64,000 bases of DNA from Escherichia coli. Lineage in GTDB: Bacteria; Pseudomonadota; Gammaproteobacteria; Enterobacterales; Enterobacteriaceae. A model generated the notes under the pieces. It was given only the letters and a program-made list of their open reading frames with translations. It was not told the origin of the DNA and did no database searches. The stretch is from assembly GCF_017348835.2 (NCBI RefSeq), contig NZ_CP071375.1; one strand, given 5' to 3'. Below, one piece after another: positions 25,637 to 53,886 of this stretch (positions are counted from its first letter, which is position 1; each line of letters opens with the position of its first letter). Both the position numbers and the translations under genes were made by a program.

Positions 25637-26502
25637 CTTATTGCCCCGCGACAGGTTTCAGCTCGATACGCTTGATATCGCCCACCAGCACCAGGTAGCT
25701 CAGTACCGCGATTAAGGCATGAACACCAACATAAATCAGCGCCCCATTAAACGAGCCAGTCGTGCCAACGATATAACCAATTGCGATTGGCGTGACGATG
25801 CCAGAAATGTTACCGAACATGTTGAACAGGCCACCGGAAAGACCGCTGATCTCTTTTGGCGCGGTATCTGCCATTACTGCCCAACCCAGCGCCCCAATGC
25901 CCTTACCGAAGAAGGCCAGCGCCATAAAGCCGATGATCATCCACTCAACGTTGACGTAGTTGCAGAACACCATCACCATCGACAGCAACATGCCCATTAC
26001 GATCGGTGTTTTACGCGCAATGTTCAGCGATCCCGTGCGGCGCATCAGCCAGTCGGAAATAATCCCACCCAGCACACCACCGATAAAACCACAAACCGCC
26101 GGAACGGAAGCCACAAAGCCCGCTTTCAGAATCGACATCCCACGCGCCTGCACCAGATAAACCGGAAACCAGGTAATGAAAAAGTAAGTCAGGGCGTTGA
26201 TACAGTACTGACCGATATAAACGCCGATCATCATCCGTGACCCGAGCAGCTGTTTGATCTGCCCCCACTTCACGCTGAACGGCACTTTAACTTTGGTGTT
26301 TTGCTGATCCATATTGATCAGCGCGCCACCCGCGGCGATGTACTCCAGCTCTTTCTGATTTACCCCCGGATGTTGATTTGGCTCGTGGATGACTTTCAAC
26401 CAGATAAAGCTGATGACAATCCCCAGACCGCCCATAAAGAAGAAGACGTGAACCGCCCCGGAAATCCTGGAGACTAAACTCCCTGAGAAAGAGGTAAACA
26501 GG

Positions 26503-26829
26503 ATGACTAAAAATACTCGTTTTTCCCCCGAAGTCCGTCAGCGGGCGATTCGTATGGTTCTGGAAAGTCAGGATGAATATGACTCACAGTGGGCGGCAAT
26601 TTGTTCCATTGCCCCAAAGATTGGCTGTACGCCGGAGACTCTGCGTGTCTGGGTTCGCCAGCATGAGCGGGATACCGGGAGTGGTGATGGTGGACTCACC
26701 ACCGCTGAACGTCAGCGTCTGAAAGAGCTGGAACGTGAAAATCGTGAACTGCGCCGCAGTAACGATATCCTTCGCCAGGCTTCCGCTTATTTTGCGAAGG
26801 CGGAGTTCGACCGCCTCTGGAAAAAATAA
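26503..26829 (+). CDS. IS3-family transposase OrfA (HTH DNA-binding, leucine-zipper-like C-terminus)
   Basis: 108-aa [29 protein letters not shown]...; ends at an A6 run (26821-26826), the presumed -1 frameshift site. Confidence 0.9.
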
Positions 26830-27716
26830 TGCCACTGCTGGATAAGCTGCGTGAGCAGTACGGGGTCGGACCGGTATGCAGCGAACTGCATATTGCCCCG
26901 TCAACGTATTACCATTGTCAGCAACAGCGACATCATCCGGATAAACGCAGTGCCCGTGCGCAGCACGATGACTGGCTGAAGAAAGAGATACAGCGCGTAT
27001 ACGATGAAAATCACCAGGTATACGGTGTGCGTAAAGTCTGGCGTCAGTTGTTACGGGAAGGTATCAGAGTGGCCAGATGCACTGTGGCACGTCTCATGGC
27101 AGTTATGGGACTTGCCGGTGTTCTCCGGGGTAAAAAGGTCCGCACTACCGTCAGCCGGAAAGCCGTTGCCGCATGCGACCGCGTAAACCGTCAGTTCGTG
27201 GCAGAACGTCCAGACCAGTTGTGGGTGGCTGATTTTACCTGGGTAAGCACATGGCAGGGCTTCGTTTATGTGGCGTTCATCATTGATGTGTTCGCCGGAT
27301 ACATCGTGGGATGGCAGGTCTCATCATCCATGGAAACAACATTCGTGCTGGATGCACTGGAGCAGGCGTTGTGGGCCCGTCGGCCGTCCGGCACAATCCA
27401 TCACAGTGATAAAGGTTCTCAGTATGTATCGCTGGCCTACACGCAGCGGCTTAAGGAAGCCGGATTACTGGCATCAACAGGGAGTACTGGCGACTCGTAT
27501 GACAACGCGATGGCTGAGAGCATCAATGGTCTTTACAAAGCGGAGGTAATACACCGTAAGAGCTGGAAAAACCGTGCAGAAGTGGAACTGGCCACACTCA
27601 CGTGGGTGGACTGGTATAACAATCGACGATTGCTGGAAAGGCTGGGCCATATTCCTCCGGCAGAAGCAGAAAAAGCTTATTATGCTTCCATCGGAAATAA
27701 TGATCTGGCAGCCTGA
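26829..27716 (+). CDS. IS3-family transposase OrfB (DDE integrase-core / rve domain)
   Basis: 295-aa ORF in -1 frame relative to orfA; ...YGVRKVWRQLLREGIRVARCTVARLM...HSDKGSQYVS...YDNAMAESINGLYKAE. Confidence 0.9.
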   Translation: MPLLDKLREQYGVGPVCSELHIAPSTYYHCQQQRHHPDKRSARAQHDDWLKKEIQRVYDENHQVYGVRKVWRQLLREGIRVARCTVARLMAVMGLAGVLRGKKVRTTVSRKAVAACDRVNRQFVAERPDQLWVADFTWVSTWQGFVYVAFIIDVFAGYIVGWQVSSSMETTFVLDALEQALWARRPSGTIHHSDKGSQYVSLAYTQRLKEAGLLASTGSTGDSYDNAMAESINGLYKAEVIHRKSWKNRAEVELATLTWVDWYNNRRLLERLGHIPPAEAEKAYYASIGNNDLAA

Positions 27717-28629
27717 GTTCACAGATAAAACACTCTCCAGGAAACCCGGGGCGGTTCAGACGTGTGACCAGCCCACTTCATGCGTCAGCCAGCCCATAAT
27801 CGGCGCGAAGATCACCGTTGCGAAGTATTGAGCGGAGTTAAAAATCGACACCGCCGTTCCCCTTTCCTGCGCCGGAAACCAGGCCGCAACAATGCGACTG
27901 TTGCCGGGGAAAGATGGCGCTTCAGCAAGCCCGACCAGGAAGCGCAGAGTAAACAGGGCAACGATAATGCCGAATCCACTAAAGATATCGACGAAGCCTT
28001 GCAGCAAGGTAAACATCGACCAGATAAAGATCGACCAGAAGTAGACGCGTTTTGAACCAAAACGATCCAGCAACCAACCACCAGGGATCTGCCCGATAAC
28101 ATAAGCCCATGAGAAGGCAGAGAACACATAGCCCATTCCCACGGGATCAAGGCCGATATCTTTGGCCATTTCCGAACCGGCAATAGAAAGCGTAGCGCGG
28201 TCGCCGTAGTTGAAGGATGTGACGATAAACAACATCACCACTATCCAGTAACGAGCATTCGTGCGTTTTTCCACACTGCTCGCAGCCTGACTTAAAGAAC
28301 TCATTGTTGCACTCCTGAAAATTCGCGTTAGCCACGCTCACTCTGGACTGCGACATCGCCAGGAAATCAGAGGTGACGTAGGGTGTTTTTTGCCGTTTTT
28401 ATAGGTCGTTCGCCGAATACGGCGCGTGTTTATATCTGGCAATAGCAGTATAAAAAGCGCGCCATAGCGGCTCACCGTGCAACAACACAACATTAATGCG
28501 TTCAATGAGGCCCGATTTTGGCATTAGCCCTGGACGGTGGAATCCACTTCACGGAAATGAAAACAAGAACAAGAAAGGAAGGGTTAAAACGAAGAAATAA
28601 AGAAGAGTATGAAATGGATCGCTTGACTC

Positions 28630-30317: not shown

Positions 30318-30360
30318 AAAGCAACCTCAATAAGAAAAACTGCCGCGAAGGATAGCAGGA

Positions 30361-30719
30361 ATAAAAAAAGGGAGCACTGTATTCACAGTGCTCCCGGTTC
30401 GTTTCGCAGCATTCCAGCTACTTTTGTTGCTCCCTGCTCATCCTTGACAACTTTTCCTCTGGCCTTGCGGCCAATCGTTCATCCTGAACTATTGCTTCCT
30501 GCTCACACCACCCCGATGTGATACTTCATCCTGAAGTGTCCCTGGCCTTCCTGACCCACCGAATCATCCTGACCGGTTCTCATTCTCCATCCTGGAGGTG
30601 TCCTTTAACGCGTCCTGCGTCATCCTCTTCGCTTCATCCAGAAGCCTTTCCCTGAAACACCATCCTGGTGTGTCCTTCAGAAGTGTCATCATCCTGATGT
30701 TCACTTCGTTGTCTGACTC
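30361..30719 (-). ncRNA. csrB: CsrB small regulatory RNA (CsrA-sequestering)
   Basis: Minus-strand transcript with about 18 GGA-containing motifs (CAGGATG/AGGATG family, seen as CATCCTG on the plus strand), ending in hairpin GGGAGCACTG-loop-CAGTGCTCCC plus U-tract (30363-30395); 5' end approximate. Confidence 0.85.
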
Positions 30720-48899: not shown

Positions 48900-49105
48900 A
48901 CTTCCTGAGCCGGAACGAAAAGTTTTATCGGAATGCGTGTTCTGGTGAACTTTTGGCTTACGGTTGTGATGTTGTGTTGTTGTGTTTGCAATTGGTCTGC
49001 GATTCAGACCATGGTAGCAAAGCTACCTTTTTTCACTTCCTGTACATTTACCCTGTCTGTCCATAGTGATTAATGTAGCACCGCCTAATTGCGGTGCTTT
49101 TTTTT
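48900..49105 (+). ncRNA. gcvB: GcvB small regulatory RNA (Hfq-dependent, GU-rich R1 region)
   Basis: Divergent from gcvA; begins ACTTCCTGAGCCGGAACGAAAAGTTTTATCGG, contains GTTGTGATGTTGTGTTGTTGTGTTTG, ends at hairpin GCACCGC-ctaatt-GCGGTGC plus T8 (49098-49105). Promoter -35 TTGAGC (48865-70), -10 TATAGT (48888-93). Confidence 0.85.
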
Positions 49106-52064: not shown

Positions 52065-52247
52065 GGGCGAGGTTATCCCTCACCCTAAACGCATAAATGC
52101 CTGATGCGCTACGCTTATCAGGCCTACATAACTCCTGCAATATTTTGGATTTGCATGATTTGTAGGCCGGATAAGGCGTTCACGCCGCATCCGGCATGAA
52201 CAACGCGCACTTAGTCAATAATCAGGATGTGAGGTTACCCCTCACCC
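52065..52247. repeat. Composite REP cluster (BIME-like): two REP units bracketed by two small GC hairpins with near-identical sequence
   Basis: Hairpin GGGCGAGGTTATCCCTCACCC (52065-85); REP GCCTGATGCGCTACGCTTATCAGGC (52099-123); REP GCCGGATAAGGCGTTCACGCCGCATCCGGC (52166-95); hairpin GTGAGGTTACCCCTCACCC (52229-47). Confidence 0.7.
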
Positions 52248-53589: not shown

Positions 53590-53666
<77 letters not shown>

Positions 53667-53699
53667 ATTAAAATTTGATGAAGTAAAGCAGTACGGTGA

Positions 53700-53776
<77 letters not shown>

Positions 53777-53809
53777 ATCAAATTTGATGAAGTAAAAGCA
53801 GTACGGTGA

Positions 53810-53886
<77 letters not shown>

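Follow-up and report, generated by a model that had tools for sequence, protein, structure and literature searches.

The closest described relatives of the element considered here are IS629, IS1203 and IS3411, members of the IS51 subgroup of the IS3 family, which are 1310 bp long, end in TG...CA within imperfect 25-bp inverted repeats, and carry orfA in frame 0 and orfB in frame -1. Few insertion sequences of E. coli and Shigella are as abundant as IS629/IS1203, whose frameshift signal is represented in Rfam by the family ALIL (RF01497; Mazauric et al. 2008), in which a slippery motif in the upstream frame precedes a first stem-loop (SL1) whose loop is complementary to an internal loop of a second stem-loop (SL2), this partner lying about 44-104 nt 3' (PMC5009743). 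In IS3, IS911 and IS150 the -1 shift likewise falls in the overlap of the two frames, within the last heptad of a leucine zipper, and is accompanied by a structure that follows 3' at a distance of 5 nt and possibly by an upstream Shine-Dalgarno-like element; these elements, however, use an A_AAA_AAG heptamer decoded by tRNA-Lys, and their structure is an adjacent compact H-type pseudoknot or stem-loop rather than the long-range ALIL. Across the IS1 and IS3 families A_AAA_AAG or A_AAA_AAA is the commonest type and accounts for 72% of the motifs, while in the E. coli ranking of tetramers U_UUU stands above A_AAA, the weakest active one, and tetramers that have no correctly placed structure are close to background (PMC4066793).

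The window analysed here, a stretch of 64,000 nucleotides of Escherichia coli DNA, contains a complete element of the IS629/IS1203 type (Table 1). It shows the organization of the IS3 family throughout: two consecutive open reading frames that partly overlap, orfB lying in the -1 frame relative to orfA; imperfect inverted repeats with the termini TGAACC...GGTTCA and thus 5'-TG...CA-3' ends; a target duplication within the 3-4 bp of the family; and, according to Pfam, a helix-turn-helix DNA-binding domain in OrfA and a DDE (rve) core in OrfB, the protein of the orfB frame matching rve (E 3.6e-26) and HTH_21 (E 1.1e-18) and also rve_3 and rve_2. E. coli PE164 has copies that are 100% identical to it along all 1310 bp, and the same length is matched at 95-100% identity in 4482 records, where most copies lie at 95-99% and are named by PGAP as IS3, IS1203 or IS629 family; only 144 records reach at least 99%, so that the copy is a minor sequence variant of an element present in 4260 of the 5426 complete genomes searched. 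Set against IS629, IS1203 and IS3411, to which its nucleotide identity is 95-100%, it differs in nothing substantive.

Table 1. Coordinates of the insertion sequence, its frameshift region and its target gene in the window.
Feature	Position	Strand	Basis
Complete IS629/IS1203-type insertion sequence, IS3 family, 1310 bp	26449..27758	+	Nucleotide identity; TG...CA ends
IRL, left terminal inverted repeat, 25 bp	26449..26473	+	22/25 match to reverse complement of right end
IRR, right terminal inverted repeat, 25 bp	27734..27758	+	Paired with IRL
Target-site duplication GACG, left copy	26445..26448		Empty-site reconstruction
Target-site duplication GACG, right copy	27759..27762		Empty-site reconstruction
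gudP 3' part, interrupted; host target, outside the element	25638..26448	-	ORF list; gudP annotation in matching genomes
gudP 5' part, interrupted	27759..28304	-	ORF list; gudP annotation in matching genomes
orfA, 108 aa, HTH_Tnp_1 domain	26503..26829	+	ORF list; Pfam PF01527, E 2.9e-12
orfB, ATG-initiated, 295 aa	26829..27716	+	ORF list
Predicted -1-frame part of fusion transposase, from re-read base 26793; HTH_21 and DDE integrase core	26793..27716	+	Translation; Pfam
SD-like AGG, 10 nt upstream of slippery motif; possible stimulator	26777..26779	+	Position kept in relatives
U_UUU slippery tetramer, formed by codon UUU-97 and the last U of UAU-96; putative principal -1 frameshift site	26790..26793	+	Rfam ALIL 5' end; 50/50 relatives; NCBI fusion
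Spacer GCGAA, 5 nt, slippery codon to SL1	26794..26798	+	5 nt after UUY codon in nearly all relatives
SL1 of ALIL, GGCGG-AGUUCGA-CCGCC	26799..26815	+	Rfam structure line; -10.5 kcal/mol; 96.3% of cells paired (50 relatives)
Apical-loop GUUCGA, predicted to pair with SL2 internal loop	26805..26810	+	Complementary to 26866-26871
SL2 of ALIL, 6-nt internal loop UCGGAC at 26866-26871	26861..26900	+	Rfam; folding
A6 run, codons AAA-107 and AAA-108, 0-frame G_AAA_AAA_UAA; at most a secondary 'shifty stop' site	26821..26826	+	Sequence
UAAUG, orfA stop overlapping orfB-frame AUG; probable termination-reinitiation start for free OrfB	26827..26831	+	Sequence

The junction of the two frames had been singled out by the original prediction, which placed a programmed -1 frameshift site at a run of six A. 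Its description of the letters is accurate: orfA terminates in ...TGG AAA AAA TAA, with the stop codon at 26827-26829 (positions 26815-26831 read CTCTGGAAAAAATAATG), and shares one A of this stop with the ATG at 26829-26831, the orfB frame being -1 because (26829-26503) mod 3 = 2. The further statement that the run lies exactly at the overlap is right in so far as the run is inside it; the frame of orfB, however, is open from 26763, following a TAA at 26760-26762, so that the overlap comprises 64 nt (26763-26826), of which the A-run forms only the 3' edge. The expectation of an OrfAB fusion transposase of the IS3 family agrees with PGAP, which labels a copy of identical sequence 'IS3 family transposase, programmed frameshift', and with the score of the fusion against NCBIfam NF033516 (367.7 bits, cutoff 160). 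What does not hold is the choice of the A-run as the conserved programmed site, or of the A_AAA_AAG type of arrangement that is usual in the IS1 and IS3 families and is not used by the IS629-type subgroup. In the reading that best explains the locus, to which we assign a probability of about 0.85, this is an IS629/IS1203-type element whose transposase is produced by a -1 shift at U_UUU aided by an ALIL pseudoknot, and whose A-run belongs to a stop/start junction. Since the conserved, structure-assisted shift site is thus a U_UUU motif, situated 31 bases before the A-run, the element is an ordinary and already described IS3-family insertion sequence of the IS629/IS1203 type, and both site and element are already known.

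The evidence for this reading begins with the match of positions 26784-26900 to the Rfam ALIL model, which extends over the full model (1-117 of 117) and, at 120.3 bits (E 2.6e-32), exceeds the gathering score of 50. The model, which starts at ...UAUUUUGC, leaves the stretch separating SL1 from SL2 unpaired, and the A-run falls in that stretch. As in the ALIL of Mazauric et al. (2008), the U_UUU stands 5 nt before SL1, a 45-nt spacer leads to SL2, and the loop and the internal loop form a 6-bp helix, GUUCGA/UCGGAC, composed of five Watson-Crick pairs and one G-U pair; the family consensus is GCUCGA/UCGAGC, from which the clade of this copy departs by a compensatory C-G to U-A change and by a U-A to U-G change. 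SL2 folds with -21.1 kcal/mol and a z of -3.67, with 0 of 200 shuffles as good.

Conservation was assessed in 50 distinct relatives with 52-98% OrfB identity, retrieved from a scan of genome contigs by OrfB protein similarity only, those with a truncated or disrupted frameshift region (L005, L020, L021, L024, L031, L054-L056, L062, L076 and L079) being left out. U_UUY stands in the orfA frame of all 50 (28 U_UUU and 22 U_UUC, 17 of them full U_UUU_UUY heptamers), a conservation that is inflated because the conserved bases are also held by two overlapping reading frames. The orfA/orfB overlap windows of all relatives intersect from -13 to +30 nt around the UUY codon, and within this interval U_UUY is the sole slippery motif that they have in common. 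The helix between loop and internal loop is paired in 98.3% of cells, with compensatory changes at two of its six pairs (G-C/C-G/A-U and C-G/U-A), and SL2 has compensatory changes at 7 of 14 pairs; pseudoknot cells as a whole are paired in 91.9%, a share that drops to 33-45% once the partners are slid. Upstream, no fewer than 40 of 49 relatives carry an AGG at the SD-like position, its bases being constrained also by Lys/Gln-Ala codons, and the internal SD stimulators of dnaX and IS3 act at a spacing of 10-11 nt (PMC6938710). The protein is in keeping with the same site: the spacing read from the translation gives OrfA a heptad series L76-L83-L90-F97, whose fourth and last member is the shift codon, in line with the IS3-family scheme in which the leucine zipper's last heptad contains the frameshift.

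Public annotation points the same way. The exact fusion joined at U_UUU exists at NCBI as an 'IS3 family transposase' protein found on 16 contigs, and in a tally of junctions from an OrfB protein similarity search that was saturated with 98-99% identical proteins, 114 of 125 public fusions were joined at U_UUU and 11 at the A-run and stop, where annotators write ...WKK-L-MPLL... The NF033516 score of a fusion joined at the A-run is 362.9 bits, and the gap of 4.8 bits to the U_UUU fusion is too little to decide alone. Taken together, the Rfam model, the invariance in 50 of 50 relatives, the 5-nt spacing, the covariation of the pseudoknot and the fusion annotations identify U_UUU at 26790-26793 as the principal -1 shift site, and the Rfam model and a review lead us to regard it as probably the site that was mapped experimentally. 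A full-text literature search on IS629 frameshifting returned secondary mentions only, and the supplements of PMC4066793 make no mention of IS3411, IS629 or IS1203.

These computed data (anatomy, family conservation, covariation and database annotation) are what the proposed mechanism is built on, and from them we infer the slip and its efficiency, as well as reinitiation and whatever activity the A-run may have. In this mechanism, tRNA-Phe on codon UUU-97 (26791-26793) would slip back by one base onto U_UU (26790-26792), after which reading would go on with UGC GAA GGC..., giving the junction ...AYF-CEGGVR... and, by programmed -1 ribosomal frameshifting, an OrfA-OrfB fusion transposase of 404 aa. 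As a tetramer U_UUU is only moderately efficient, and the slip would be stimulated by the ALIL pseudoknot, with SL1 placed 5 nt past the slippery codon and GUUCGA pairing with the SL2 loop UCGGAC; on sequence and structural modelling the pseudoknot is a candidate for this stimulatory role in vivo. Ribosomes that do not shift would stop at the UAA at 26827 and release the 108-aa regulator OrfA, part of them probably reinitiating at the overlapping UAAUG to give free OrfB, and the lineage-specific A6 run (A_AAA and then a stop) may in addition give rise, at a low level, to another shift product, ...LWKK-IMPLL...

Beyond correct annotation the locus has little to offer, and it is in annotation that the distinction matters. 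The correct fusion junction is at U_UUU, where base 26793 is read twice, and not at the A-run, and public annotations are inconsistent on this point; for the IS51 subgroup, with its U-based motif and long-range pseudoknot, looking for an A-run where orfA meets orfB is a rule of thumb that misleads.

The role of the A-run nevertheless deserves closer consideration, in the first place in a two-site model that is compatible with the U_UUU reading and to which we would give rather less than an even chance. In this model U_UUU and its pseudoknot form the main site, and the A-run and stop of enterobacterial IS629 would yield a second fusion of the same length, with a different 11-residue linker, that modulates transposition. 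Chen and Hu are said to have reported in 2006 a weak secondary shift at the A-run and stop, or two fusion products, for IS629. Some annotators, as described above, join the proteins there, and an A-run lies beside the orfA stop (as A_AAA or A_AAG) in 11 of the 12 close enterobacterial relatives, 10 of which have at least five A; six have A6, L004 reads AUAAAA, and L072 has A5G and thereby A_AAG, the most shift-prone tetramer. This retention in 11 of 12 suggests, from sequence, that the site may matter in the enterobacterial clade, where the A-run may be a minor second site. Against the model, the run is held by double coding too, as WKK in frame 0 and EKI/EKM in frame -1, and folding finds no stimulatory structure at it. 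A narrower version, in which the A-run would be a second, structure-independent -1 site in the enterobacterial IS629 lineage only, placed atop the ancestral U_UUY/ALIL and giving two fusions of which one regulates the other, strikes us as a shade more doubtful than the model itself. Even if true, the two-site reading has reportedly been described for IS629 already (Chen & Hu 2006), and only its restriction to a clade (a slippery tetramer in 11 of 50 relatives) would be a small addition.

Equally tentative is a reading in which UAAUG with its A-rich leader would not be a frameshift signal and the overlap of stop and start would couple the initiation of free OrfB (295 aa) to the termination of orfA. 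The single base shared by the two codons fits it, as does the finding that 43 of the 50 relatives have an orfB-frame start codon (ATG, GTG or TTG) immediately next to the orfA stop or overlapping it, and public databases contain a 295-aa 'IS629 transposase OrfB'; moreover, a passage of PMC5771124 that cites Chen & Hu reports that IS629 transposes less in the presence of free OrfB. Upstream of the AUG, however, the sequence has no clear Shine-Dalgarno element, and the conserved Met could be just a residue of the fusion protein.

A reading in which the A6 run itself supplies the principal, or even the sole, programmed -1 site, with tRNA-Lys slipping on A_AAA (or G_AAA_AAA) as the ribosome pauses at the UAA to give the ...LWKK-IMPLL... 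junction, is in our view very improbable. A-rich heptamers are indeed the commonest type in these families, some public fusions are joined at the run, and the run is retained in close relatives and abuts a stop codon. Weiss et al. reportedly described in 1987 such 'shifty stops', in which a stop codon next to a run favours slippage; with A_AAA directly followed by UAA the locus resembles these cases of low-level frameshifting, here as a secondary route at best. The 0-frame, however, reads G_AAA_AAA, with X being G and not A, so that the canonical X_XXZ_ZZN phase is absent and only an A_AAA tetramer, the weakest active one, is in phase; compared with IS3, IS911 and IS150, the A-run is thus out of phase and has no adjacent structure. 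The original prediction had proposed RNA folding as a check for a downstream stimulatory structure, and the segment just 3' of the run (26827-26862) folds no better than shuffles (-8.6 kcal/mol, z = -0.54, 60 of 200 shuffles as good), SL2 starting 34 nt downstream instead of at 5-9 nt. Nor could the ALIL pseudoknot act on a ribosome at the A-run, since that ribosome would already have melted SL1. A run of at least five A is missing in 40 of the 50 relatives with the same two-frame layout, the 10 that have it being all enterobacterial with at least 83% OrfB identity, and in the 38 more distant relatives an A-run beside the stop is absent. An A-run as main site would, finally, explain neither why U_UUY is invariant and followed by a 5-nt spacer nor why the pseudoknot covaries.

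Bacterial transcriptional slippage is generally productive from about nine or more identical bases, so that an A6 is too short for it, and with the run missing in most relatives, the idea that RNA polymerase gains or loses an A here and brings orfB into the orfA frame is close to negligible. Realignment on A/T runs is used by some IS elements, according to a passage in PMC3711429.

Some minor features of the junction may be recorded here. A 5-bp CUGCU/AGCAG helix can be drawn 3' of the A-run; it was rejected, its fold being no better than shuffles and the pairing being lost in L006, L007 and L019. Runs of at least six A number 29 on the + strand of the window, so that an A6 alone is not rare. 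The orfA of this copy ends in AAAAAA-UAA, and that of many other copies in AAAAAA-UGA.

As to the insertion itself, the intact ends and reading frames, the target duplication and a complement of 25-32 copies per genome lend indirect support to transposition activity, which for this element would proceed by copy-out/paste-in via a circle. When the flanks are rejoined with one GACG, the resulting 296 bp match the intact gudP of other E. coli genomes without interruption and at 100% identity, and the GACG duplication is borne out against the empty site in 5418 genomes. The copy inactivates gudP, the glucarate/galactarate transporter gene, in a lineage with two pig isolates as its representatives, and it is in the two genomes sharing this insertion that the 25-32 copies of the element are found.

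We place the principal -1 frameshift site joining orfA and orfB, with a probability of roughly 85%, at a U_UUU tetramer followed by an apical loop-internal loop (ALIL) pseudoknot. The Rfam scan gives a full-length match to the ALIL family (RF01497) at 26784-26900, beginning at CGCUUAUUUUGC, with 120.3 bits against a gathering score of 50 (E 2.6e-32), and in the identical copy of E. coli PE164 PGAP annotates the same ALIL element and flags the adjoining CDS as 'programmed frameshift', so that the general mechanism first proposed, an OrfAB fusion made by -1 frameshifting, holds. The tetramer is the sole slippery motif directly 5' of stem 1 in the window and is followed by a 5-nt spacer (GCGAA), while the loop of stem-loop 1 (SL1; GUUCGA, 26805-26810) pairs with UCGGAC (26866-26871) through five Watson-Crick pairs and one G-U, and stem-loop 2 (SL2) folds at -21.1 kcal/mol, far more stably than shuffled sequence (z = -3.67). 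ALIL devices are described for IS3411 and at least 27 other IS elements (Atkins et al. review, PMC5009743). The residues L76, L83, L90, and F97 form a heptad series with seven-residue spacing, and since F97, the shift codon, closes this series, the site fits the IS3-family scheme of a shift in the last heptad of the leucine zipper.

Features of the insertion sequence and other Rfam matches in the window
Feature	Coordinates	Strand	Remarks
Complete insertion sequence	26449-27758	+	1310 bp
GACG target duplication	26445-26448 and 27759-27762		flanks of the IS
orfA	26503-26829	+	108 aa; stop TAA 26827-26829
U_UUU	26790-26793	+	last U of UAU-96 plus codon UUU-97
Stem-loop 1	26799-26815	+	GGCGG-AGUUCGA-CCGCC; Rfam ALIL model
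Unpaired spacer, SL1 to SL2			45 nt; holds A-run and orfA stop; Rfam ALIL model
A6 run	26821-26826	+	sequence
orfB, ATG-initiated	26829-27716	+	295-aa ORF; ATG and orfA stop have one base in common
Stem-loop 2	26861-26900	+	6-nt internal loop; Rfam ALIL model
CsrB sRNA	30360-30719	-	Rfam
GcvB sRNA	48900-49105	+	Rfam
ES036 sRNA	52120-52162	-	Rfam
Three tandem tRNA genes	53590-53883	+	Rfam; identical scores

In outline this arrangement resembles those of IS3, IS911, and IS150, namely a slippery site, a 5-nt spacer, and a 3' structure, whereas it differs from them in its U-based tetramer with tRNA-Phe and in its long-range loop/internal-loop pseudoknot. A Shine-Dalgarno-like AGG (26777-26779) 10 nt 5' of U_UUU is possibly a further likeness; it is shared by at least 40 of 49 relatives, a conservation that may be purely protein-coding, as the AGG lies within conserved Lys/Gln-Ala codons. 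In dnaX and IS3, SD stimulators of -1 frameshifting have been reported at the same 10-nt distance upstream.

The assignment to the IS3 family is borne out by the 25-bp ends (22 of 25 positions matching, TG...CA termini), the target duplication, and the domains, with HTH_Tnp_1 in OrfA and HTH_21 plus the rve DDE core in the orfB part, as well as by a score of 367.7 bits for the 404-aa fusion against NCBIfam NF033516 'IS3 family transposase' (cutoff 160). IS copies in PE164 are 100% identical, and thousands more, at 95-99% identity, carry the PGAP names IS3, IS1203, or IS629 family transposase. All defining features of the IS and ALIL families open to test were found: the element belongs to IS629/IS1203 (IS3 family, IS51 subgroup) and carries a recoding signal of the ALIL type, both already known, with nothing new in either. 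The insertion splits gudP (25638-28304, - strand), a galactarate/glucarate/glycerate transporter gene; the flanks rejoined through a single GACG are 100% identical to intact gudP of other E. coli, with coverage of 80% or more of the rejoined sequence in 5418 of 5426 genomes. Among the 5426 complete E. coli genomes, 5418 have the empty site and only two show the gudP::IS junction: PE164 and F2_81, which come from pigs and each carry roughly 25-32 IS copies.

Relatives were gathered by OrfB protein similarity alone, as a guard against circularity, yielding 80 loci at 52-98% identity from GTDB contigs (one genome per species), which span Enterobacterales, Nitrosomonas, Rhodobacterales, Chloroflexi, and others; leaving out truncated, disrupted, and duplicate copies gave 50 distinct frameshift regions. 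All 50 carry U_UUY in the orfA frame at the same position (U_UUU in 28, U_UUC in 22; 17 as full U_UUU_UUY heptamers), with T invariant in columns 7-9 of alignment A1 and the 5-nt spacer to stem 1 retained in nearly all. When every in-phase Z_ZZN motif was tallied within each element's own orfA/orfB overlap, this U_UUY was the only one common to all 50 overlap windows, whose intersection runs from -13 to +30 nt around the U_UUY codon. Since these bases are coding in both frames, their conservation says little by itself, and compensatory changes together with a slide control carry more weight. The named ALIL structure has 91.9% of cells in standard pairs, versus 33-45% after shifting the partners by 1-3 columns; pairing reaches 98.3% in the loop/internal-loop helix, where two of the six pairs vary in a compensatory way (one is G-C, C-G, A-U, or G-U, the other C-G or U-A), as do seven pairs of SL2.

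The original prediction had instead placed the shift at the A-run. Positions 26815-26831 read CTCTGGAAAAAATAATG, and the window sequence and ORF list confirm the A6 run, the orfA stop, and the orfB ATG in the -1 frame ((26829-26503) mod 3 = 2) where they had been claimed. The frame of orfB opens before its ATG, at 26763, directly after a TAA (26760-26762), so the run, described as exactly at the overlap, does lie inside it but marks only the 3' edge of a 64-nt overlap; runs of at least six A are common, with 29 on the + strand of the window. As the orfA frame reads UGG AAA AAA UAA here (G_AAA_AAA), the run is out of heptamer phase and leaves only the tetramer A_AAA. Measured in E. coli with a strong pseudoknot, the full set of tetramers ranks A_AAG >> U_UUC > U_UUU > C_CCY > A_AAA, and those without structure barely exceed background (Sharma et al. 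2014, PMC4066793); A_AAA is thus the weakest active motif in that order. The stimulatory structure expected 3' of the run did not emerge on folding, 26827-26862 being no better than shuffles (z = -0.54), and the significant fold, SL2, starts 34 nt downstream; by the time a ribosome decodes the run, stem 1 has been opened, so the ALIL pseudoknot cannot act there. At the orfA stop, 11 of the 50 relatives have a slippery tetramer (A_AAG in one, otherwise A_AAA) and 10 have runs of at least five A; all belong to the enterobacterial clade, with identities of 83% or higher, while orfA in the 38 others has ends such as CGACCGAAGUGA. Within that clade the junction motif varies (A_AAA or A_AAG; stop UAA, UGA, or UAG), with Enterobacter asburiae (L072:653-774) having AAAAAG-UAG and an in-phase A_AAG.

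Public annotation mostly, though not unanimously, favors the upstream site. The exact fusion obtained by re-reading base 26793 is NCBI's 'IS3 family transposase' on 16 contigs, and among 125 annotated fusions in near-identical matches (from records P0001-P0135), 114 are joined at U4G, as ...AYF-C-EGG... (43+3) or ...AYF-G-EGG... (65+3), the C or G spelling being the annotator's choice of re-read base, and 11 at the A-run/stop, as ...LWKK-L-MPLL.... The slightly higher IS3 profile score of the U_UUU fusion (367.7 versus 362.9 bits) backs this join weakly.

The A-run may nevertheless support a low level of shifting as a second, 'shifty stop' site; that it yields a minor product is possible, if on balance somewhat doubtful, and its restriction to the enterobacterial clade fits a late, lineage-specific addition. 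Chen and Hu are said to have described, in 2006, two IS629 frameshift products, from a TTTTG motif and an A-rich motif near the orfA stop, one reportedly assisting the other. That the A-run is the principal site is highly improbable given its phase, its lack of adjacent structure, and its narrow conservation.

Most likely, the flagged bases close orfA and open the ATG-initiated orfB. In 43 of the 50 relatives the orfA stop overlaps or adjoins an orfB-frame start codon, which suggests termination-reinitiation coupling that would make free OrfB. OrfB of IS629 lowers transposition, according to the statement in PMC5771124 that cites Chen and Hu 2006.

Two alphaproteobacterial relatives, Labrys miyagiensis (L028:615-700) and Pseudorhodobacter antarcticus (L060:616-700), have a palindromic insert of about 40 nt between U_UUU and SL1 (GGCGCAUGC-AAGC-AUGCGCC and GGCGAUGC-AAGC-AUCGCC, respectively), through which both frames stay open. 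It forms a strong hairpin starting almost at the slippery site (85-nt segments, -33 and -38 kcal/mol) and may be either a substitute stimulator or a small, mobile palindromic repeat. Copies 95-98% identical to the E. coli element (L002-L005) lie on three contigs of about 1-1.4 kb and one of 6.4 kb, in assemblies labeled Clostridia MAG, Acinetobacter idrijaensis, Clostridiaceae MAG, and Terrisporobacter mayombei; E. coli contamination or mis-binning is more likely here than real horizontal transfer. The Rfam scan found no second IS629/ALIL copy in the window, and its other gathering-level matches, listed in the table, are ordinary E. coli chromosomal context.
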